Origin: a virus
Lineage: Duplodnaviria > Caudoviricetes
IMG/VR virus record: IMGVR_UViG_3300020419_001132
Strand: one strand, 5' to 3'
DNA length: 64,000 nt
This document shows, piece by piece, positions 22,230-49,113 of the stretch. Position numbers and translations under genes: made by a program. Positions within the stretch are counted from its first letter, which is position 1; each line of letters opens with the position of its first letter. The notes under the pieces are model-generated. The model ran no database searches. It had not been told where the DNA came from and saw only the letters and a list, made by a program, of their open reading frames with translations.

Positions 22230-22267
22230 ACTATACACTCTTTAAATAAAGAAGTCAAGTATTTTGG
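22230..22267 (-). promoter_or_regulatory. Sigma70-type promoter with upstream CCAAAA box
   Basis: CCAAAA-TAC-TTGACT-17-TATAGT upstream of the ligase. Confidence 0.75.
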
Positions 22268-22977
22268 CAAATATATTGGAAAGCTCTGTCTGCAAAGACT
22301 TTATGAGATTGTTCTCCTGGATGTGAATTGTCTAAAGCAAAATCTTGCATTGTTTTTGATATATCAACTATTCCACTAACTTTAATTGGTACATAATTTA
22401 TAGAATCCAAGTCGTGTTTTTTCATAAAATTTCTTTCGTGATAGCTTTTACCACAAGAAAAATAATATGCTGTAATATTTTTATGTTTTAAAAAAAGGTA
22501 TACATAGTTTGTTAGAGTTATCCAATCAAGATGAATATGTGCTTCTTCTGCAAAAAAACTTACCCAAACTTTATCAAGGGCAGTTGATTTAGGTTTCCTA
22601 TTAGCAAAAATTTGTTCTATTACCCATTCACCATATTTTTCATTTGGATTGTAAGGTGCATTAGTCCCCAAGCCGGATTCGGCTTCAGGCTCATATTTAA
22701 TAAGACAACTTCTAGGAATAGGGGGAAACATTACTACAACCATATCGCCCTTTCGATATTTTGTTGTTTGTATCTTATGTACTACTTCTCTCATACTAGC
22801 ACCAGGATTACTTAGATTTAAACAAACTCTGTTTAGATCATTACTTAATAATTGAGGCCAGGCAAACTTAGAAGGTTGCTCTCCTGCACCCATACCTATT
22901 GCACAATCTCGTAATCCGTGTCCGTATGTATTACTGCATCCAAAGGCTATTAGGCGTCTTTTTTTAGGTTTCTTCAT
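22255..22977 (-). CDS. SGNH/GDSL-like hydrolase
   Basis: IAFGCSNTYG (block I), NLSNPGAS (block II), DNSHPG (block V). Confidence 0.75.
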   Translation of the reverse strand: MKKPKKRRLIAFGCSNTYGHGLRDCAIGMGAGEQPSKFAWPQLLSNDLNRVCLNLSNPGASMREVVHKIQTTKYRKGDMVVVMFPPIPRSCLIKYEPEAESGLGTNAPYNPNEKYGEWVIEQIFANRKPKSTALDKVWVSFFAEEAHIHLDWITLTNYVYLFLKHKNITAYYFSCGKSYHERNFMKKHDLDSINYVPIKVSGIVDISKTMQDFALDNSHPGEQSHKVFADRAFQYICQNT

Positions 22978-22982
22978 GTCAA

Positions 22983-22988
22983 TATTTA
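22983..22988 (-). promoter_or_regulatory. Late promoter TAAATA, predicted leaderless start
   Basis: TAAATA-TTGAC-ATG(22977). Confidence 0.6.
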
Positions 22989-23031
22989 TAACGGGTATGT
23001 TCAGTATGCATAGCTATTTGATATAGCACAG

Positions 23032-23039
23032 TATAAATA
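23032..23039 (+). promoter_or_regulatory. Late promoter TATAAATA
   Basis: Exact T4 late consensus upstream of the structured leader. Confidence 0.65.
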
Positions 23040-23043
23040 CAGA

Positions 23044-23150
23044 TGAGCTAGTTCAGCTCAGGCACCTGGGAAAGACCAAGTGACGTCGGAAATAGACCGA
23101 GGTATTGCTCCCCTTAAGCATCCAAAACTTAATAGAAACAGGAGAACACT
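23044..23150 (+). ncRNA. Candidate structured 5' leader / cis-regulatory RNA
   Basis: Four consecutive stem-loops (23044-60, 23063-82, 23086-100, 23101-123) between the promoter and SD AGGAG; family not recognised. Confidence 0.45.
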
Positions 23151-23354
23151 ATGGAAAATGTGTATAAAGTCCTACGATTTTTGTTTGGATCAATTGATAA
23201 CTCATCCAAACACGAAAGCTATCGTATATGGGCTAAGACAGAGTATGGTAATGATTGGCGTTTTGTTTATCAACACCTACTCGAACATAACGGCCAGCCG
23301 CCGAAAAAGCAAGACTATCAAAATGTAAATGAAAACTTAAAAGGATGGGTATAA
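23151..23354 (+). CDS. Small hypothetical protein
   Basis: 67 aa, SD AGGAG; WAKTEYGNDW motif. Confidence 0.7.
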   Translation: MENVYKVLRFLFGSIDNSSKHESYRIWAKTEYGNDWRFVYQHLLEHNGQPPKKQDYQNVNENLKGWV

Positions 23355-23358
23355 AATT

Positions 23359-23544
23359 ATGACTACACAAATATTAACAACCTACTATTGTAGAATATGC
23401 GATAGTATTTCAAACGGACTTAAAACTATCGGAAATGGCTGTATAAGTTTTTTCGAAACTGCAGGGACTGCAAGAGCGGCCGCTGAACTTACTCGTATGG
23501 GTATGCACAAAGAAGCTAAATCACTTATGACAGGAAAAAAATGA
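23359..23544 (+). CDS. Small protein, possibly DUF1127/RSP_7527-like
   Basis: 61 aa; ARAAAELTRMG helix; family tentative. Confidence 0.6.
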   Translation: MTTQILTTYYCRICDSISNGLKTIGNGCISFFETAGTARAAAELTRMGMHKEAKSLMTGKK

Positions 23545-23687
23545 ATACATTAGCTAAAATATGGAAATACATAAGGCCTAAAACACATCAAGAAATGATC
23601 TATGATTACTTGGCATCGTCTGCAAATCTAGTAGAACTTGAAAGAAGACAACAAGCAATAATTAACGGTAAAGTAAATATTTGGTAA
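23541..23687 (+). CDS. Small protein, DUF3563-like (48 aa)
   Basis: Manual: MNTLAKIWKYIRPKTHQEMIYDYLASSANLVELERRQQAIINGKVNIW; ATGA overlap; YLAxSxxLxxLERR motif. Confidence 0.6.
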   Translation: MNTLAKIWKYIRPKTHQEMIYDYLASSANLVELERRQQAIINGKVNIW

Positions 23688-23688
23688 C

Positions 23689-23763
23689 TGGCACAGGTGG
23701 AAGGAATCGAACCCTCTCTTTCAGGTTTGGAATCTGACGTGCAACCATTAACACTTCACCCAT
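23689..23763 (-). tRNA. trnW: tRNA-Trp (CCA)
   Basis: Cloverleaf ATGGGTG-AA-GTGT...GCAC-G-TCAGA-TTCCAAA-CCTGA-AAGA-GAGGG-TTCGATT-CCTTC-CACCTGT-G-CCA; encoded CCA end, G73. Confidence 0.92.
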
Positions 23764-23781
23764 AGAACTTATTGTCTATAT

Positions 23782-23810
23782 AATGTAACACAAGTATTCT
23801 TATGTGTCAA
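23782..23810 (-). promoter_or_regulatory. Sigma70-type promoter for the tRNA
   Basis: TTGACA-17-TACATT just upstream of the tRNA. Confidence 0.6.
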
Positions 23811-23824
23811 GTCTAAATTTTAAA

Positions 23825-24016
23825 TTATTGTAGTTTATTACAGACATACTTATTGCCAAGAGGAGACTCTATAGCAATGTATGGTAATTCTTCATTAGGA
23901 GCCCGACATTCAATCGAGTTCCAACTATATCCCTGTGTAAGTTGTTCGTTCATTGTGTCAATGAACTCTCTGTTATCATACGACCATAGGGCCGCAAAAA
24001 GTGTTAAAAATACCAT
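23825..24016 (-). CDS. Small hypothetical protein
   Basis: 63 aa, hydrophobic N-terminus, SD GAGG. Confidence 0.65.
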   Translation of the reverse strand: MVFLTLFAALWSYDNREFIDTMNEQLTQGYSWNSIECRAPNEELPYIAIESPLGNKYVCNKLQ

Positions 24017-24040: not shown

Positions 24041-24496
24041 TTAGTTACAAAAATTTTTCACTAGCTCTAAGGGAGAATCTCCCTTGTGCCAGTATGAAAA
24101 TGCCTCTGCTTCAATTTGATGATCGTGTTTATCATATCGACTAGAAACATATTCCGGAACGTACATATTTACTTGAAAAGTCTTTAATTCTGCATTATGA
24201 AATCCAGCATGACAATCTTGTGCAAGGTGTACAGCCTCGTGCATTAGAACTTTTCTGTAAACATCTTTATGTCTATTTTTTGGCCAGTTTTTCTGGATAT
24301 TATCTACACAAAGTTCTAATCTATTAGCAGATGGTCTATACCATCCGTCGGAATCTGGTGAACGTTCGCAACCGTATGAATTAATTACTACAGGAACATA
24401 CTTTTGTAGTTCGGTTGCAAGATCTTGGTATGCAAGTGCAGGATGACATCCGGCAATTGATATAAGCATAATAGTTGCGAACATTCTTGAAATCAT
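24041..24496 (-). CDS. Exported HExxH zinc metallopeptidase-like protein
   Basis: Signal peptide; VLMHEAVHLAQ plus downstream EAEA. Confidence 0.7.
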   Translation of the reverse strand: MISRMFATIMLISIAGCHPALAYQDLATELQKYVPVVINSYGCERSPDSDGWYRPSANRLELCVDNIQKNWPKNRHKDVYRKVLMHEAVHLAQDCHAGFHNAELKTFQVNMYVPEYVSSRYDKHDHQIEAEAFSYWHKGDSPLELVKNFCN

Positions 24497-24912
24497 TTTT
24501 GGAACCTTACGTTATAGGTTTTTCCTTCGTAAAGAAAACTTACGATACTATGACTGTATACTTCTTTTGTAGTGTCATTAAACCTTTGTTCAAGTCGACA
24601 CACTCTTTTTGTGCCTCCTGTCGCTTGACTGTTGTTATGCCCAAGCATACCACCAATCACGGCACCTAATGCTCCACCGTTTTTTACATCACCTACATTG
24701 TTGCCTATAATGCCTCCTATGATAGCACCTTTCAATGTATCTCCAGTTTTATCACCTGAAACATTTTCGTTATAACATACTTCTACATTGTATGCATCTC
24801 TTTCAATCACTGTCTTATAATGATCACTTACGTTTATATCGGCATTAGCCACTCCGGCAAATCCACAAAATGAACTTGCCACAATAGCTAAAGTTAAATT
24901 AAGTTTTTTCAA
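24493..24912 (-). CDS. Glycine-zipper 2TM exported protein
   Basis: Signal peptide; GAIIGGIIG...GALGAVIGGMLG. Confidence 0.8.
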   Translation of the reverse strand: MKKLNLTLAIVASSFCGFAGVANADINVSDHYKTVIERDAYNVEVCYNENVSGDKTGDTLKGAIIGGIIGNNVGDVKNGGALGAVIGGMLGHNNSQATGGTKRVCRLEQRFNDTTKEVYSHSIVSFLYEGKTYNVRFQK

Positions 24913-36415: not shown

Positions 36416-38206
36416 TTATTCTTCCGCCTTTAAACGTAGTTGTTGATTCTCTACTTTGGTTAGGTAACCTTTCTTTTTTTTTGAATCTAATGTTTCTGCT
36501 GGAAGATATGACTCCCAAGGAAAACTATCTATTTTTTTATCTAAGTACCATTGTTTATAAGTTGCAATATTTTCTCCTGGATTATCTAGTTTCCAGGCTT
36601 TTTTAGCTTCTTTCCAATCATCTAATAGTTCTAGTGCTTCAATGTCTTCCGCGGTTAATCTGTATTCTTCCGACGATGACTCTTTTTTTTCGAGTTGCTC
36701 TGGCTCCGCAGGTACAAGTTTAGGTTCTTGTTCTACTTCTTTATCTTCGTATAGTTCTTGCCATTCCTCTGTTGTATCTGCTTCCTTTTTTTCAAAGTCA
36801 AATTCCAATTGATTAGGATCTTTTTCCTCTCCATATTCAAGAGCATTTTTATTCCAATCAGTTTTGTCAAACATATCTGAAGTAGGCGATCCACTAACCT
36901 TTTCCAATAGATCTTCAGTTTCAACTTCTTCCTGTTCTTCTGTATTCTTTTCGTTGTCAACAATTTTTTGTGCTCTAGCTTGTTCATACTTACGCCACTG
37001 ATCATTAGGTGACTTTGGTTTCCTAAATTCTAATGTGTATTGGCTAGCAATTAAAAGAAGTACTGCAAGTGGATCAAAAACAAAAATAATTAAAATTATA
37101 ACCCAACGTACTGCTTCTTCTAGTAAATCTCTGTTGACATCTTCTCCGTATATCAATTCTGCGATATACTTAATAGGTCCTACTTCTGCCTCTAGCTTTC
37201 TATATTCTGCTTCTAAGCTATATTTCTGTTCTGTAAGACTATCTATTTCAGCATTTGCATTTTTAATTTTTAGTAGCTCTGCTTCTATAAATTCTGTATT
37301 ATTGTCTGGAGTTACACTTCCTATGTCTTGCCTAAGTTTATTAATTAGCTTGTTAGAATCTGCAATTTCTTTTTCAGCTATGTCTCGCAGTCTTTTAATT
37401 TCATTGTTAGCCGCGACTATTAATGGAGATTCTTTTGCTTCTAATGTTCGTATAGTCTGTAGTATACTATCTCTTTTTGCAACAAGACCTTCTCTATATG
37501 CTTCTACCTGCCCCGCAGTATTAGATCCATAATTACCATCTACTCTTGTGCCAACAATGCTTTGTAAACGTTTTATACTTTCAGTGTCACGCCTATTGAG
37601 TAAATTAGTTAAAGTAGCCAAGTCAGCATCTATGCTTTCTACTTGTGCTAGGTACGGCTCAACCTTTTTGTCTTTACGTAATAACTCTTGTTTTATAACT
37701 TCTTGTTGTTCAGCTACTAATGGCTTGATTCTTTCATAAGCAGTATCAATTCTTTTTTGTTCTCTATCAATTTGATCCTGTATAGTATCGTTTTGATTTG
37801 CTCCTGCATTTTCTGTTTTTGTAATCTTAGCTTCTGCTCTAACTATTATAGCATCATACCTGGCAAGGTCTTTTTCTATACGAGCAATCTGTTCAATGCT
37901 TTCATTACTAGCACTAGTTTGTTCTATATGTGCTTTGGATAGAAAACCAAAGATACCCATGCTAGTTATTACCATGAGAAGAACTACTGCTATACTTAAA
38001 TATGTTTTAAGCCACCAGGCCGCTTGTTTCCAATACCTATGAAGCCAAACAGCCGTAACTAATTTGCCAACTTCTAACACACCGCCCATCACCATAATAG
38101 GTATTGCCGCGGCGGCAAAAATAGCAACCAAACCTGCTATTGAATAGTATATTGCAACTGCACTAATGCATAATGCAGTTATTAGTGTTAATATCGCTAA
38201 GAACAT
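36416..38206 (-). CDS. Inner-membrane coiled-coil protein with peptidoglycan-binding-like motif
   Basis: Three N-terminal TMs, long coiled coil, LQSIVGTRVDGNYGSNT, further TM, acidic tail; start MFLAIL; possible -1 extension to 36312. Confidence 0.75.
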   Translation of the reverse strand: MFLAILTLITALCISAVAIYYSIAGLVAIFAAAAIPIMVMGGVLEVGKLVTAVWLHRYWKQAAWWLKTYLSIAVVLLMVITSMGIFGFLSKAHIEQTSASNESIEQIARIEKDLARYDAIIVRAEAKITKTENAGANQNDTIQDQIDREQKRIDTAYERIKPLVAEQQEVIKQELLRKDKKVEPYLAQVESIDADLATLTNLLNRRDTESIKRLQSIVGTRVDGNYGSNTAGQVEAYREGLVAKRDSILQTIRTLEAKESPLIVAANNEIKRLRDIAEKEIADSNKLINKLRQDIGSVTPDNNTEFIEAELLKIKNANAEIDSLTEQKYSLEAEYRKLEAEVGPIKYIAELIYGEDVNRDLLEEAVRWVIILIIFVFDPLAVLLLIASQYTLEFRKPKSPNDQWRKYEQARAQKIVDNEKNTEEQEEVETEDLLEKVSGSPTSDMFDKTDWNKNALEYGEEKDPNQLEFDFEKKEADTTEEWQELYEDKEVEQEPKLVPAEPEQLEKKESSSEEYRLTAEDIEALELLDDWKEAKKAWKLDNPGENIATYKQWYLDKKIDSFPWESYLPAETLDSKKKKGYLTKVENQQLRLKAEE

Positions 38207-40764: not shown

Positions 40765-41226
40765 TTAGTTTCTCCTCATTGTTGCTATTTCTGTCGCCTG
40801 TTTTGAACCAGTCTTGTCGTCATCATCAGCAAACACAGGAACCATGTTAGACTTGTGCATAGTTGCAATACCAACAAGTCTACGTTCTCCTGTATATTGT
40901 AAACTTTCTTTCTTTGTGCAAGGTGCAAAAGAATGATGCGAATTAAGACTAGGTGCTTCCTTTTCTGGTCTTTGCCAGACATTTCCGCCTTCATGAACCC
41001 AATCGGCTTTAGGCGCCGCCTTTGCTCTAGGCTTGTGTTCGCCGTGACAATAAGCAATAAATTGTTCGAGATCCATTTGTAGATTATGAGAACCTATACG
41101 TCTCATATCTTTGTTATGTATCTTTAGTTGTTCTTGGAATTTTGCAATTTTTTGCAGGGTAAGTTTTTTCTTCTTGGGCTTCTTGGTGTTAAGTGTAGTG
41201 AGCCCTCTTTGTAAATGCATGGTCAT
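40765..41226 (-). CDS. Hypothetical phage protein
   Basis: C-terminal GIATMHKSNMVPV motif recognised from T4-like phages. Confidence 0.75.
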   Translation of the reverse strand: MTMHLQRGLTTLNTKKPKKKKLTLQKIAKFQEQLKIHNKDMRRIGSHNLQMDLEQFIAYCHGEHKPRAKAAPKADWVHEGGNVWQRPEKEAPSLNSHHSFAPCTKKESLQYTGERRLVGIATMHKSNMVPVFADDDDKTGSKQATEIATMRRN

Positions 41227-41302: not shown

Positions 41303-41575
41303 TTAAGCTACAACTCTTCGTCTTGGAATTGAGTAGGTTACTGTAGGTCTTCCTACTTTATTACTGTCCATTGAGCTTACTTTTACGTTAAAGCCAGCTT
41401 CTCTTAGCTCAGTAAGTCTTGCACCAGGTGATGCAATTTTTAGCTTCTTTTTAAGATCACCAGTGGTAAAAGTTTTACCTGTACCCCAGTAATTTTGTAA
41501 GATTTTTTGGTTCTGGGTACCTGCATTAAAAAACTTAGTACCTACAACTTTAGTTTTACTTTTTATCATTATCAT
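41303..41575 (-). CDS. Small winged-HTH-like DNA-binding protein
   Basis: FTTGDLKKKLKIASPGARLTELREAGF pattern. Confidence 0.6.
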   Translation of the reverse strand: MIMIKSKTKVVGTKFFNAGTQNQKILQNYWGTGKTFTTGDLKKKLKIASPGARLTELREAGFNVKVSSMDSNKVGRPTVTYSIPRRRVVA

Positions 41576-43364: not shown

Positions 43365-44830
43365 ATTTCAACTCCATAATTTGCACTCCATCTAAGTGCA
43401 TCCTCTTTTGTATTTACTAAAGGTTCGCCTTTGATATTTAAACTAGTGTTAAGTAACATAGGACATCCTGTTGTTTCATACCAACGTTCTAACAGTTGTC
43501 TGAATCCGCTATTATCATCTCTAGATACTGTTTGAACTCTGCTCGTGTTATCGTAGTGTGTGATGGCAGGAAACGTATCAGGGTCTCTACACGTTGCTGT
43601 ATATTGCATGTACGGGCCAGTGATGCCTGCAAAATAGTCTTTTGTATGTTCTTCAAGTATTGCTGGTGCAAAAGGTCTGAATGCTTCTCTTCTTTTAAGT
43701 TTGTTAACTCTGTCTTTAACATTCTTTCCTCTTGGATCGGCCAGTATACTTCTGTTGCCCAAAGCCCTAGGCCCAAACTCAGCCCTACCACTAGCAACGG
43801 CAGTAATATGATTTTTTTGTAATTCTTGTAAAATTTTTTCAACAGGGTAATTTCCATTTATGTTATGTCCTAAATATGGACCAGGCCAATCTATATGTCT
43901 TTGCCATTTTGCCAAAACACATCCTATGGCACTTCCAGCATCTCCTGGGTTTGGCATGATCCAAACATTTTTAAATCTTTTGTGTGCTAACGGATTAGCC
44001 ACACAGTTTAAAATACAACCTCCCATTAATACTAAGTTTTCTTTTTTTGTAGTATTAGCAGTATAATCTATTAAACTTGCAAAAATTTCTTCGTATATCT
44101 GTTGTACAGCCGCGGCAATATCTGCAAAGTCCTTGTCACTATTTAAGTCGGGTGCCCAATCTTTGCATCCTCTGTGGCAATCTCTTGAAAACATTACATA
44201 TGGATCATCAGCAGATGGCATTTTAGCGATGAAGTCATCAATAATTCTTTGATATAATCTATCGGGATCTCCTATAGCCGCCATGCCCATTAACACATAT
44301 TCATGTTCTTGTGGAATTAATCCTATACGTTGGGTCATGGCACTATACCACATACCAACACTATCAGGATAACGTTGGCTTCTTACCTTTTTCAATGTAG
44401 GACCTTCACCCTTCCATATACTAAGAGTCTCCCATTCTCCTATACTATCGATACACAATACAGCCGCATCAGTATATGGACTGGTGTAGTATCCAGCAGA
44501 AGCATGACTAAGATGATGTCCAGTACTGATGCTTCTTGGAGCTTCTTTGTAAAACTTTCTCATATGTTGGGTGGGAGATTCTTTTTTTAGAAGATGATAT
44601 TGCCCTGCAAATAGTTGTCTTGTCTTTTTTAACAAAGGTTTTTCGTAGAAGTAAACCTTGTTTGGTACGCCAAATTCTAATATAGCATCAGAAAGTAACC
44701 AGTGATTTAGGTTTTTATCGTTTTTAATACGACTGTAACGTTCTGCATGAGAAGCAAATTTTAATTCATTATTTACGAATACTGCTAAACTAGCATCATG
44801 TGACAGTCCACTCCAGCCCCATGTAATCAT
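43349..44830 (-). CDS. O-carbamoyltransferase (NodU/CmcH/TobZ family)
   Basis: HDASLA, HHLSHA, GGCILN, EFGPRALGNRSILADPR, REAFRPFAP, LLNTSLN; start MITWG. Confidence 0.93.
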   Translation of the reverse strand: MITWGWSGLSHDASLAVFVNNELKFASHAERYSRIKNDKNLNHWLLSDAILEFGVPNKVYFYEKPLLKKTRQLFAGQYHLLKKESPTQHMRKFYKEAPRSISTGHHLSHASAGYYTSPYTDAAVLCIDSIGEWETLSIWKGEGPTLKKVRSQRYPDSVGMWYSAMTQRIGLIPQEHEYVLMGMAAIGDPDRLYQRIIDDFIAKMPSADDPYVMFSRDCHRGCKDWAPDLNSDKDFADIAAAVQQIYEEIFASLIDYTANTTKKENLVLMGGCILNCVANPLAHKRFKNVWIMPNPGDAGSAIGCVLAKWQRHIDWPGPYLGHNINGNYPVEKILQELQKNHITAVASGRAEFGPRALGNRSILADPRGKNVKDRVNKLKRREAFRPFAPAILEEHTKDYFAGITGPYMQYTATCRDPDTFPAITHYDNTSRVQTVSRDDNSGFRQLLERWYETTGCPMLLNTSLNIKGEPLVNTKEDALRWSANYGVEICLPE

Positions 44831-44835
44831 ATTAA

Positions 44836-44841
44836 TATTTA
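44836..44841 (-). promoter_or_regulatory. Late promoter TAAATA, predicted leaderless start
   Basis: CTAAATA-TTAAT-ATG(44830), identical to the site at 43245. Confidence 0.6.
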
Positions 44842-44849
44842 GTTTGGAA

Positions 44850-45161
44850 AAAATGGCCCGTTCTGTTGCCCGGTGGAACCATACCGCGAAGCTCACCGGT
44901 TATTAAGCGGCAATAAGTTCACGATCCATAGAAAGATCTAAAGAAGTGAACGCTCCAGGTGCAAAATTATCGTTTGCATTTGTAGTGTTTGTTCGCGTTA
45001 ACCGAGCTTACATCCGGACAACTCCACGTTTCTATTAACTGCCTGTCGATCCTATTTCAGCCCCATCATAAGCACACTCTCATTCTCAGTGTGTTTATGG
45101 TGGAGCTGTCGGGTACCGCCCCCGAGTCCAGTCCAACTTTCGAATTGCTTCAACGTTGCAA
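44850..45161 (-). ncRNA. ssrA: Circularly permuted two-piece tmRNA (alphaproteobacterial type)
   Basis: Acceptor piece ...GACTCGGGGGCGGTACCCGACAGCTCCACCA (ends 45098), hairpin intervening segment, coding piece GGGGCTGAAATAGGATCGAC from 45064; tag ANDNFAPGAFTSLDLSMDRELIAA at 44977-44903; TAAATA at 45166-71. Outer ends approximate. Confidence 0.9.
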
Positions 45162-45171
45162 TACGTATTTA

Positions 45172-45348
45172 TTACATATTATTTTTCTTTTCTTGGACTT
45201 CCTTACGTCTTTCTTTTGTAAGTTTACCAAGATCTCCCAATGCTTTTCTAGCACGGGCCGCCGCCGCTTTAACACCTTTATCTTCAAATGTTTGTGATTC
45301 AGCAACGTAATTATTAAACGCCTGCACGATCTGTTCGTGTGTACTCAT
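45172..45348 (-). CDS. Histone H1-like (Hc1-like) small basic protein
   Basis: Manual 58 aa: MSTHEQIVQAFNNYVAESQTFEDKGVKAAAARARKALGDLGKLTKERRKEVQEKKNNM; SD AAGGAG. Confidence 0.7.
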   Translation of the reverse strand: MSTHEQIVQAFNNYVAESQTFEDKGVKAAAARARKALGDLGKLTKERRKEVQEKKNNM

Positions 45349-46800: not shown

Positions 46801-49113
46801 CTAAATTGCACAGGCTTCGCAATATTCATCGTATTCCTCATCAGATCCTTTGAACTCTGATCTTTCTAAGGGTTCTTGTGTATTTTCTTCTACTTCGCTA
46901 GGGTCAGTCTTAAAATCATAAGTATTTTGATAATAGCTTGTTTTCCAACCTAGCTTATATGTAGTTAGCAAATCTTTCATCATTACACTCATAGGAACTT
47001 CATTGTCCTCATATTGAGTAGGATTGTAACTCCAGTTTCCTGATATTGCTTGATCAAAGAACTTCTGCATCACTGCAACTACATTGATATATCCCTCGTT
47101 ACTTGTCATTTCCCATAACAAAGTATAATCGTTCTTTAATGAATAATACTGTGGAACAATCTGCTTAAGAGGCCCTTTTTTGCTCTTTTTAATGGACAAG
47201 TATCCTCTAGGTGGTTCAATTCCGTTTGTGGCGTTCGACACAACGGAACTGCTCTCTGAAGGCATCTGTGCGGACAATGTGCTGTGCCGTAAACCGTGTA
47301 ACTGTATGTCCTTGCGAAGAGTATCCCAATCATATTTCAATTTATTCGGAACAATATCGTCCAAATCCTTCTTGTAAGTGTCTATAGGTAAAGTTCCCTC
47401 ACTGTATTTAGTGCGGTTAAAATATTCACATGGACCTCGTTCTTCTGCTAACTTGTTTGATGCTTTAAGAAGATAATATTGGAATGCTTCTGTTAAGTCA
47501 TGTACAAGTTTCCAAGCACTTTTATGTGAATATGAAACTTTATTCTTAGCCAAATAATGTGCTAATCCTATATATCCAATACCTAAACTTCTTCTTGCTT
47601 TAGTGGAAATTTCTGCGGCTTTAATAGGATATTTTTGATAATCAATAATCTCTTCTAATGCTCTAACAGCTAGTTCACATAATTCTTCTAAGTCATTTAA
47701 ATCTTTTATAATGCCAACATTGATAGCTGATAAAATACACAAAGCAATTTCACCTTCCTCGTCATCGATATGATTAAGTGGCTTAGTAGGCAATGTAATC
47801 TCTTGGCATAAATTACTCATATAAACAGTATCCTTAAAAGAACTGTGTGTATTGCAATGATCTACATTCATAATATAGATACGTCCTGTTTCAGCACGTT
47901 CTTTTATTAATGCACTAAAAAGTTCCATAGCGGGAATAGAACGTTTTTTGATTGAAGTGGCCCTTTCATATTTTTCATACAAAGTCTGGAATTCAACAGA
48001 GTCTCCAAAGTATGCTTCATACAAGCCTGGTACATCGTGTGGCGAGAATAAAGTTATGTCGCCTCCAGATAATAACCTTTCGTACATTGTTTTATTCAAC
48101 TGTATACTATAATCTAATTTTCTTACTCTGTTATCTTCTGTGCCTTTGTTATTTTTTAAAACAAGAATATCTTCAATTTCCTGATGCCAAAATGGAAAGT
48201 GTACAGTTGCACTTCCACCACGTACACCATTTTGTGTACAACATCTTACTGTTGCTTCGAACTTTTTTAGGAAGGGAACAATGCCTGTATGTGCTACTTC
48301 TCCTCCTCTTATCTTAGAGTTGACTCCTCTTAGTCTGCCTGAGTTAATTCCTATACCTGCTCTTTGTGCTGTGTATCTTCCGATCGACATGTCCGACGCG
48401 AAGATTGAGTCAAGAGTGTCGTCGCTATCAACAAGGACACAAGAGGCAAACTGCCTAACAGGAGTACGCACCCCAGCCATGACTGGCGTGGGTATGTTGA
48501 GTTTAAAAAGCGAGGTCGCATCGTAATATCTCCTTACATAATATAATCTATCCTCTTTTGGATAGTTGGCAAATAATGTTGCCGCTATCATCATATACAT
48601 AAATTGTGGAGTTTCAAAAAGATCTCCTGAACTTCTATCTTGGCACAGGTATTTGTCTACTACCTGTCGCAATCCTGCATATGTAAAATTTTCATCTCTT
48701 CTGTGTTTAATATAGCTATCCAGTGTTGCAAGTTCTTCAGAACTATATTTTTCAAGTATCTCTGGATCGTATACTCCACGTTCTATATTTAGATCAATTA
48801 TTTCTTTTAAGGGAATAGTTTTGTATTCTCCAAATATATCTTTGTATGTTCCGTATAATAATAATCTTGCCGCGGCATATTGGTAGTTTGGGTTTTCTAA
48901 TGATATAAGATCATTAGCACTTCTAATTAAAATTTCTTGTATTTCGCTACTGCTCATTTCATCGTAAAACTGAATATTAGCGTTCATTTCTATTTGACTT
49001 GCACTTACTCCTGCTAATCCTTCGCAGGCAAACATTACTACCTTGTGCATTTTGTCTATATTCAGAGCTTCTTTTGTACCGTCACGTTTGACGATAAGTG
49101 TTCCATTTGTCAT
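46801..49113 (-). CDS. nrdA: Ribonucleotide reductase class Ia alpha subunit
   Basis: ATP cone, FASCVL, SNLCQEI, QMPSESSS, C-terminal CEAC; no intein evident. Confidence 0.97.
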   Translation of the reverse strand: MTNGTLIVKRDGTKEALNIDKMHKVVMFACEGLAGVSASQIEMNANIQFYDEMSSSEIQEILIRSANDLISLENPNYQYAAARLLLYGTYKDIFGEYKTIPLKEIIDLNIERGVYDPEILEKYSSEELATLDSYIKHRRDENFTYAGLRQVVDKYLCQDRSSGDLFETPQFMYMMIAATLFANYPKEDRLYYVRRYYDATSLFKLNIPTPVMAGVRTPVRQFASCVLVDSDDTLDSIFASDMSIGRYTAQRAGIGINSGRLRGVNSKIRGGEVAHTGIVPFLKKFEATVRCCTQNGVRGGSATVHFPFWHQEIEDILVLKNNKGTEDNRVRKLDYSIQLNKTMYERLLSGGDITLFSPHDVPGLYEAYFGDSVEFQTLYEKYERATSIKKRSIPAMELFSALIKERAETGRIYIMNVDHCNTHSSFKDTVYMSNLCQEITLPTKPLNHIDDEEGEIALCILSAINVGIIKDLNDLEELCELAVRALEEIIDYQKYPIKAAEISTKARRSLGIGYIGLAHYLAKNKVSYSHKSAWKLVHDLTEAFQYYLLKASNKLAEERGPCEYFNRTKYSEGTLPIDTYKKDLDDIVPNKLKYDWDTLRKDIQLHGLRHSTLSAQMPSESSSVVSNATNGIEPPRGYLSIKKSKKGPLKQIVPQYYSLKNDYTLLWEMTSNEGYINVVAVMQKFFDQAISGNWSYNPTQYEDNEVPMSVMMKDLLTTYKLGWKTSYYQNTYDFKTDPSEVEENTQEPLERSEFKGSDEEYDEYCEACAI

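Follow-up and report, generated by a model that had tools for sequence, protein, structure and literature searches.

A structured leader before a small-protein cassette

The element described here lies in the viral record IMGVR_UViG_3300020419_001132 (Duplodnaviria; Caudoviricetes), of which one stretch of 64,000 nucleotides was analysed. This whole stretch is called the window below, and it is a 64-kb piece of a large marine phage genome. The site is a divergent intergenic region of 173 nt, with a GDSL-like gene on one side (22255-22977, minus strand) and on the other a plus-strand island of three small open reading frames (ORFs) of 67, 61 and 48 aa, which is convergent with tRNA-Trp. An earlier reading made from the letters alone (the sequence-only reading) had described here a GC-richer leader with four hairpins. 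All four are present at the coordinates which it gave, as confirmed by a check of the sequence, with a G+C of 46% in the leader and 36.5% in the window. The structured part, 23044-23120, occupies the space between a late promoter and the ribosome-binding site of the cassette. The features are listed below, with SD denoting the Shine-Dalgarno sequence.

23032-23039, plus strand: T4-type late promoter-like octamer TATAAATA, recognised by sequence, 111 nt before the ATG of ORF1.
23044-23060, plus strand: hairpin 0, UGAGCU (23044-49) with AGCUCA (23055-60); it is the remaining stem 1 of a 5' H-type pseudoknot seen in many homologues.
23063-23082, plus strand: hairpin A, CAC-c-UGG (23063-69), loop GAAAGA (23070-75), CCA-a-GUG (23076-82).
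23083-23103, plus strand: hairpin 3, AC-g-UCGG (UCGG at 23086-89), loop AAAUAGA (23090-96), CCGA-g-GU (CCGA at 23097-23100); it abuts the invariant block.
23101-23123, plus strand: near-invariant block GGUAUUGCU-YYCCUYA-AGCAUCC, which contains the terminal hairpin.
23106-23120, plus strand: terminal hairpin, UGCU (23106-09), loop CCCCUUA (23110-16), AGCA (23117-20).
23124-23140, plus strand: A/C-rich spacer with hardly any G, which separates the terminal hairpin from the SD.
23141-44 and 23151-53, plus strand: SD GGAG and start ATG of ORF1, both read from the sequence.

Folding and covariation

RNAfold predicts hairpins 0, A and 3 in both the minimum free energy (MFE) and the centroid structure of the window leader. 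The MFE structure contains a CUCC/GGAG pairing instead of the terminal hairpin. The folding energy of the window leader is no better than chance (z = -0.84, with 39 of 200 shuffles as stable), and everything therefore depends on the comparison with relatives.

That comparison was made at several levels. RNAalifold, run on a MAFFT alignment of 10 short-form homologous leaders (alignment A2), returned exactly the four hairpins with 4 compensatory pairs; hairpin A appears there as pairs 41-47/54-60, with UA to AU swaps. A covariance model (R1) was then built from 10 short-form homologous leaders, and gives the window copy a score of 107 bits. R1 finds one match per locus in the 95 loci that had been located by sequence pattern, and likewise one match in each of 80 loci out of 80 that had been located via the protein alone, always ending at the gene start. 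In the 95-sequence model alignment (A3), which is fitted to the covariance model and hence leans towards the structure, 96.8% of cells pair and 14 of the 21 pairs have changed on both sides. The covariation score of A3 is 0.457, compared to 0.118 for shuffles (none of 500 reaches 0.457) and at most 0.051, about ninefold lower, when the partners are slid. Six of the seven pairs of helix 2 (hairpin A) have changed on both sides, and four of the six pairs of helix 3 (hairpin 3) are compensatory.

Two further results come from unfitted data. In 85/85 leaders the invariant block is immediately preceded by the end of a hairpin of at least 4 bp, as against 15% of random positions, and these hairpins comprise 25 distinct combinations of stem and loop. 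The 5' pseudoknot, aligned with MAFFT in 26 homologues, has 98.7% of cells pairing and compensatory changes in both stems. Overall, three of the four helices are rich in compensatory changes, while the fourth hairpin and its flanks are almost invariant. The sequence-only reading had pointed to homologous leaders as the place to look for covariation, and these bear it out, with strong conservation throughout. We therefore have high confidence that the four-hairpin element is a genuine conserved structured leader RNA.

Some additional structural features were considered. An extended terminal stem, GG-u-AU-u-GCU...AGC-AU-CC, may exist but shows no covariation, its 3' CC being only the majority state (CA, CT and AA also occur); the GG could equally be used by an AC(C)/GGU extension of the preceding hairpin. 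A three-way junction closed by CAC...GUG in the long forms is contradicted by uncompensated GUG to GCG changes. Loop-loop complementarity was examined by eye (GGAAAG or GGGAA loops against the terminal CUUUCC or UUCCC, and the loops of hairpins A and B against each other) and showed no consistent covariation. A second R1 match in the window, at 36598-36714, has an E-value of 0.24 and is treated as chance.

Modular architecture of the leader family

The order of elements in the leader is promoter, variable hairpin or pseudoknot, hairpin A, optional hairpins, abutting hairpin, near-invariant block, spacer and SD. The resemblance between the two middle loops, already remarked on from the window sequence, proves to be a family-wide pattern G[N-A-A/U-A-G-A]C, often preceded by UGAC, on stems that vary freely. 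Examples are GAAAGA, GAUAGA, AAAAGA, CAAAGA, AAAUAGA and similar loops; that of hairpin A is GAAAGA or GAUAGA across the family. In the MFE folds of 84 leaders there are mostly one to four hairpins with NAWAGA-type loops, 6 of the 84 having none, and the total number of hairpins per leader ranges from two to eight. The hairpin abutting the invariant block is either a further G[NAWAGA]C unit or the invariant hairpin CCGGG-GAAGU-UCCGG. Two leaders (L013 and L095) contain a 19-nt unit duplicated exactly in tandem, and the shortest natural forms (L039, L086, L090 and L094) have a single unit followed by the terminal hairpin. The window copy belongs to the short forms.

At the 5' end, many relatives have an optional H-type pseudoknot of the form GAGC-gac-CUCA-GCUC-A-rich-UGAG. 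In the window a 12-nt deletion has removed its A-tract and the 3' strand of stem 2, leaving stem 1 as hairpin 0; the pseudoknot is absent also in L015 and L046. A 5'-terminal hairpin at +1 was considered as a general feature of the family and rejected, because the MFE structure has a hairpin within 9 nt of the promoter in just 27% of leaders.

The terminal stem UGCU/AGCA is without variation. In order to control for bias, metagenomes were also scanned with a search anchored on the preceding hairpin and not on the block itself, which gave about 111 genuine instances. Of these, 77 have a UUCCUYA-type loop, 8 have a 1-nt insertion, and 24 (about 22%) have the form GGUAUC-AUGCU-AACCAYAA-AGCAU, with the stem unchanged in all. 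The loci found via the protein also hold block variants of the form GGAUG-CUUUCCCAAAAA-CAUCC. Constraint on the block is thus stronger than on the coding sequence, since it is near-invariant while the ORF1 proteins of leader-bearing phages share only 26-58% identity with one another.

The spacer, measured in 87 leaders, is 8-20 nt long and consists of 49% A, 25% C, 24% U and 2% G, a length and composition which suggest that it is built to be single-stranded. The start ATG lies 19-32 nt 3' of the invariant block in all homologues.

A coding upstream ORF running through the block (reading 'GIAFLKHP') was also considered and can be rejected: 62 of 84 leaders have no in-frame start, the frame offset to the main ATG is random (30/28/26), and a 1-nt indel variant lies inside the block. 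Two public protein predictions (P0020 and P0092; compare 23080-23328 in the window) do run through the leader, and their N-terminal extensions contain 'GIAFLKHP'; these are probably mis-annotations. As regards mimicry of ribosomal RNA, the only identity to 16S was one of 13 nt, in a variable stem of one variant, and this is within the range of shuffles.

It is worth adding that hairpins with NAWAGA-type loops and G-C-containing stems occur elsewhere in the window, on the coding strand and mostly within genes. There are 7, against 2.9 +/- 1.7 in shuffles. Those found by the loop and stem scan include the following.

24328-24347, minus strand: NAWAGA-type hairpin.
24600-24614, minus strand: NAWAGA-type hairpin.
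36815-36828, minus strand: NAWAGA-type hairpin.
40964-40979, minus strand: NAWAGA-type hairpin.
41396-41409, minus strand: NAWAGA-type hairpin.
48548-48565, minus strand: NAWAGA-type hairpin.

Distribution and novelty

The most conserved 21-mer of the leader, GGTATTGCTYYCCTYAAGCAT, occurs in at least 118 IMG/VR viral contigs, with at least 90 distinct leaders among the matches listed, and the leader is found on more than 100 metagenome contigs as well. The 21-mer pattern of the block has one match in the window and 0 in shuffles. All relatives of ORF1 in IMG/VR are preceded by a recognisably similar leader. Five large phage records (155-328 kb) each have one R1 match, and the 328-kb record among them is complete with terminal repeats.

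Among 185,579 prokaryote species genomes the 21-mer is present on 6 contigs. Those from marine metagenome-assembled genomes (L125, L127 and L130) carry genuine leaders; three Bacillota contigs and L012 have chance or weak matches. L130 is PBPT01000016.1, a 335-kb contig assigned to a 'Neomarinimicrobiota' genome, and may be a mis-binned jumbo phage; the complete phage that bears the motif has 328 kb. In 50,697 records of cultured phages there is no DNA match to the 2-kb region or to the long-form and short-form leaders beyond chance matches of 20 nt, and a tblastn search of cultured phages with ORF1 found no match.

The sequence-only reading could match the RNA to no riboswitch that it knew, and comparison with Rfam 15 (4227 models) agrees: there is no match in 22900-23700 even at E-values up to 10, save for a chance 15.7-bit snoRNA elsewhere, and none at E-values up to 1 in the leaders of 13 homologous loci. 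In one of the relatives (L041) there is a weak CsrC-like Rfam match at 2396-2613 (20.3 bits, E 0.036, far below the gathering threshold), some 1.2 kb 3' of the leader, which is either a multi-hairpin RNA or chance. The invariant sequence is absent from the searchable literature, as is the term DUF3563. We take the leader to be a previously undescribed, phage-specific RNA family with one copy per genome, although of a familiar general kind, namely a structured 5' leader. It very probably has a regulatory role, which would make it a new regulatory RNA of large, uncultured marine phages.

Transcription of the locus

The octamer TATAAATA occurs 6 times in the window, where 10 are expected, and 5 of the 6 precede genes in the correct orientation. 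A second copy faces away from the leader:

22983-22990, minus strand: divergent TATAAATA resembling a late promoter; the GDSL-like gene has its ATG (22977) 5 nt further on.

The sequence (A/T/G)TAAATA is found 50-170 nt 5' of the invariant block in 87 of 93 distinct homologous leaders. Judged by its motifs, the locus fits a T4-type late transcription unit, for which TATAAATA at about -10 and no -35 element are expected, and the leader transcript is predicted to start at about 23045. The late mRNA of the GDSL-like gene would be essentially leaderless, because its octamer is only 5 nt from the ATG. A single intergenic region would thus give a structured leader of about 106 nt on the plus strand and a leaderless mRNA on the minus strand.

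Contigs from three seawater RNA libraries overlap the small-ORF island. A single RNA-library record (23068-23218) bridges the leader and ORF1, and the ORF1 contig has a depth of 39 in a metatranscriptome run of 118 Mb. These contigs, whose starts and ends cannot be read as transcript ends and whose uncovered stretches are uninformative, are compatible with one transcript carrying leader and ORF, although this is weak evidence and DNA carry-over is possible.

An attenuator based on an intrinsic terminator finds no support, in that 22800-23900 contains no terminator-like site on the plus strand; the terminal hairpin is followed by CCAAAAC. The lack of a terminator, together with a spacer of 2% G, fits control of translation or stability rather than attenuation. 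The sequence-only reading had proposed a new cis-regulatory RNA or small RNA (sRNA). The first of these stands as a candidate, but a free-standing sRNA is unlikely, because there is no terminator, the R1 match invariably runs up to the gene start, and one metatranscriptome record covers leader and ORF1 together.

The small-protein cassette and its genomic setting

The genes that follow the leader are listed here.

23151-23354, plus strand: ORF1, 67 aa, assigned by its motif to the 'WAKTEYGxDW' family.
23359-23544, plus strand: ORF2, 61 aa, assigned by its motif to the 'G-x-ARAA-x-x-L...EAK-x-LM' family; the most constant member of the cassette.
23541-23687, plus strand: ORF3, 48 aa, DUF3563-like (E 0.016 for DUF3563, below the cut-off).
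23689-23763, minus strand: tRNA-Trp, convergent with ORF3.

A single base separates the stop of ORF3 at 23687 from the 3' end of tRNA-Trp, so that the two convergent transcription units meet head-on with no spacer.

The WAKTEYGxDW motif is found in 78 of 84 complete first ORFs. Relatives of ORF1 are encoded by 247 viral stretches, and fall into 194 clusters at 50% identity among 1.84 billion proteins. Neither ORF1 nor ORF2 matches a Pfam, NCBIfam or PHROG family. The ORF2 family is present in the window and in 8 of 13 other cassettes read (L015, L046, L073, L052, L003, L013, L009 and L039), and its look-alike clusters in the Atlas are 93-99% viral and hypothetical only. The L015 homologue of ORF3 reaches 27.2 bits for DUF3563, against a cut-off of 26.9. 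First genes other than WAKTEYG include DUF3563 and DUF1127 proteins, and DUF1127 genes are present in the cassettes of L019 (34.2 bits), L003, L037, L009 and L039. The cassettes thus mix four families of small proteins: WAKTEYG, 'ARAA...EAK-LM', DUF3563-like and DUF1127.

The WAKTEYG proteins (at the C-terminus of ORF1, 23334-23351 in the window) and the unrelated DUF1127 family (in first or second genes of L019, L052, L037, L009 and L039) share a C-terminal tail, N-(A/E)-N-L-(K/R)-G-(W/F)-V, which looks like a recognition tag. Another WAKTEYG subgroup ends in KEVA.

Nearly all ORFs of the window lie on the minus strand, one of them having 3252 aa. The gene content includes an ATP-dependent DNA ligase, both subunits of ribonucleotide reductase, a carbamoyltransferase, an endolysin and tail-fibre-like proteins. 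DNA near-identical to the window is found in marine or seawater metagenomes from at least eight studies. The RNA genes are tRNA-Trp and a permuted transfer-messenger RNA (tmRNA) of alpha type, and an Rfam scan at the gathering threshold finds only these two. The tmRNA (44812-45207, minus strand) scores 125.7 bits, and its predicted tag peptide ends in ...LIAA. Since the phage carries a tmRNA of this type, with this predicted tag, the host is probably alphaproteobacterial.

Possible functions of the leader

The leader is linked in cis to the cassette: it is directly upstream in 80 of 80 protein-found loci, occurs once per genome, and keeps a constant geometry of promoter, leader, SD and ATG. 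The region from about 23045 to 23150 would be the structured 5' leader of a late-transcribed mRNA for three small proteins, and would influence, in cis, how stable the cassette mRNA is and how well it is translated. Conserved loops and a conserved terminal hairpin on covarying stems, a unit that can be duplicated, and a rigid placement relative to the SD suggest a site of macromolecular recognition more than a small-molecule aptamer. We therefore favour, as the best candidate but a tentative one, that the leader is a cis-acting, sequence-specific binding platform for a trans-acting factor, most likely a protein. Such a factor could set the access of ribosomes by occupying the terminal hairpin, which lies within 8-20 nt of the SD.

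The T4 gene 32 leader pseudoknot, the coat-protein hairpins of MS2 and PP7 and the T4 RegA sites are phage translational operators that provide feedback by a protein, and the ribosomal-protein operators work likewise. The leader resembles these in being a structured 5' leader near the SD, with conserved loops on variable stems, and, in many members, in the succession of a 5' pseudoknot, an unstructured stretch and the SD. It differs in having several repeated units instead of one operator, and there is no sequence similarity. The CsrB/RsmZ sponges and the boxB of lambda nut, with its A-rich GNRA-like loops, are comparable in their duplicable hairpin unit, conserved purine-rich loop and variable copy number. 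In contrast to CsrB/RsmZ, GGA is not conserved in the leader loops (many are CAAAGA or AAAAGA) and the array sits inside an mRNA leader; no N-like arginine-rich peptide or CsrA was identified for the phage leader.

The partner may be one of the small proteins of the cassette itself, giving feedback, or a conserved host RNA-binding component. The first is suggested by analogy, because relatives have DUF1127 genes and the DUF1127 protein CcaF1 of Rhodobacter is reported to bind RNA (PMC8034643). The second is suggested equally, because the block is invariant across divergent phages. The leader is retained in cassettes from which the ORF1 family is missing (L015, L046, L073, L019 and L052), which implies that it controls the whole cassette and that ORF1 is not an obligatory cis-encoded partner.

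This retention also counts against the platform, and several other observations do so. ORF1 is not basic, and its AlphaFold model is plain helical and uninformative (pLDDT 70). The window's own cassette has no clear DUF1127 gene. The thermodynamic stability of the family is only moderate, with a mean z of -1.95, compared to -0.84 for the window copy. The partner is a putative factor, and we infer both the transcript start and the late timing from the promoter motif alone. As for the terminal block, RNA-RNA pairing might also explain why it is so invariant, as might two mutually exclusive folds like those of a riboswitch expression platform.

A bolder version, which we regard as unlikely, is that the leader represents a new class of ligand- or protein-responsive riboregulator, unique to large marine phages. 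Its duplicable G[NAWAGA]C hairpins, together with the invariant terminal hairpin, would act as the sensor by which the timing or dose of the DUF1127/DUF3563/'WAKTEYG' cassette is set. In such a scheme the same RNA might titrate a conserved host RNA-binding factor late in infection.

The leader may alternatively be a constitutive element that gives high late expression with no signal control, its hairpins shielding the 5' end from RNases and its G-poor spacer serving as a ribosome standby site or enhancer. The first hairpin of the window leader does begin at about the predicted +1, the unstructured spacer is followed by a strong SD that is no more occluded than in shuffles, and the depth of the ORF1 contig is weakly in favour. 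Stability elements usually tolerate sequence drift, whereas here at least 20 consecutive nucleotides, including a 4-bp stem, are fixed while the proteins diverge to about 30% identity, and loop sequences are fixed too. A 5'-proximal hairpin is moreover predicted in only 27% of leaders. We consider this explanation unlikely.

A metabolite or ion riboswitch is distinctly unlikely. In such a switch the hairpin array would bind the ligand, perhaps by contacts between loops as in guanidine-II, and the terminal hairpin region would rearrange in response, with a change in access to the SD. This reading would suit a conserved structured leader placed right before the SD that has no Rfam match, the H-type pseudoknot with its A-rich loop at the 5' end of many members, and an invariant terminal block that could be held by two alternative folds. 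Repeated hairpins with conserved loops and covarying stems also recall mini-ykkC (guanidine-II), which is a tandem-hairpin design; like such riboswitches the leader has small hairpins with fixed loop nucleotides upstream of the SD. The loops there are ACGR, in two hairpins, compared to G[NAWAGA]C here, and the leader has an extra invariant terminal hairpin; membership of guanidine-II is excluded by the loops, which are not ACGR tetraloops, and by Rfam. The c-di-GMP-I (GEMM-I) riboswitch was rejected similarly, there being no match to RF01051 and two to eight hairpins in place of a two-hairpin aptamer with a tetraloop/receptor. More generally, the number of units varies from none detected to four with recent tandem duplications, the pseudoknot is dispensable (L015 and L046 have none, and the window has lost it), the smallest natural form contains just two hairpins, and the leaders show no conserved core made of a junction or internal loop. 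What follows the leader are genes for tiny proteins, and not the transporters or enzymes that would suggest a ligand, and SD accessibility does not differ from that of shuffles.

An action in trans was considered next. The leader, or a piece processed from it, would either sequester a host RNA-binding protein as a sponge or act as an sRNA, its pyrimidine-rich, anti-SD-like terminal loop pairing with the SD regions of host mRNAs. The analogy is with CcsR/'cuckoo' RNAs (alpha-r14-type; Rhodobacter ccaF1-CcsR1-4; PMC8034643, PMC8625941), which share with the leader an array of short hairpins on a transcript with tiny-protein genes including DUF1127, a pyrimidine-rich loop resembling an anti-SD, and an alphaproteobacterial setting (in our case a probable one). 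A hairpin array with repeated conserved loops and a variable number of units, a UUUCCUC-type loop complementary to AGGA/GAGG, apparent co-transcription with genes for DUF1127, DUF3563 and other small proteins, and a terminal block whose invariance would suit a conserved host target all fit such a role. CcsR is an sRNA derived from a 3' UTR (untranslated region), while the phage RNA is a 5' leader, upstream of a cassette gene and under a putative phage late promoter. CcsR has loops CCUCCUCCC, compared to a single C/U-rich terminal loop here (UUUCCUC, CCCCUUA or AACCAYAA), which is dispensable in 22% of variants, and the other loops of the leader are purine-rich (NAWAGA), unlike those of CcsR. 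The linkage to DUF1127 holds in many relatives but with no clear gene in the window. The loops, a single terminal one in place of CCUCCUCCC stem-loops, and the lack of a CcsR/ar14-type match in Rfam speak against membership of the CcsR/cuckoo family. Furthermore, neither a terminator nor an obvious processing signal follows the terminal hairpin, the RNA-library record continues from the leader into ORF1, the CCUC loop is missing from 22% of variants, and the strictly fixed distance to the SD and ATG would be needless for an RNA acting in trans. We consider such an action very unlikely.

The sequence-only reading had also proposed an intrinsic switch, in which CUCC (23108-11) of the terminal hairpin pairs alternately with the SD GGAG (23141-44). 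In the MFE structures of the window, L015, L023 and L006 this segment is indeed paired with the SD, and on average the terminal loop accounts for some 19% of the SD pairing probability and the 3' flank of the loop for 23%. The pairing is of 4-5 bp only, and the terminal hairpin stays closed in the consensus structure. In partition-function calculations on 84 leaders, mean SD accessibility is 0.43 compared to 0.49 after shuffling, and 62% of leaders are below their own shuffle mean, which is no clear shift; in the window it is 0.38 compared to 0.52 +/- 0.25. Since accessibility is like that of shuffles, and since the AACCAYAA loop variants (24 of about 111) lack a CCUC-type loop and are unable to pair with GGAG, the switch is highly improbable and this part of the earlier proposal is not supported.

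Finally, the idea that there is no RNA function at all, the hairpins being due to chance, to a minus-strand terminator or to an upstream coding frame, can draw on the non-significant fold of the window copy, on hairpin 0 with its T-rich tail, which is terminator-like on the minus strand, and on the gene calls that read through the leader (P0020 and P0092), but it is refuted by the comparative data, namely plus-strand conservation with covariation, a T-rich tail that is the complement of the late promoter, and a frame that is random, without an in-frame start in most leaders and broken by a 1-nt insertion variant inside the block.

Significance

The structured regulatory RNAs of uncultured marine phages are almost unexplored. 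The leader is abundant, being present on hundreds of contigs from many seawater studies; it is single-copy and under strong constraint, with a terminal block that has changed less than the proteins encoded downstream. It is a candidate for a new Rfam family, and in having a modular hairpin unit that can be duplicated it stands apart from most known cis-regulatory RNAs. It is tied to a cassette of tiny proteins, at a time when the biology of DUF1127 and DUF3563 is just emerging in Alphaproteobacteria. The leader therefore offers a testable entry to the control of late small-protein expression in jumbo phages, and may reveal what DUF1127-type proteins recognise.

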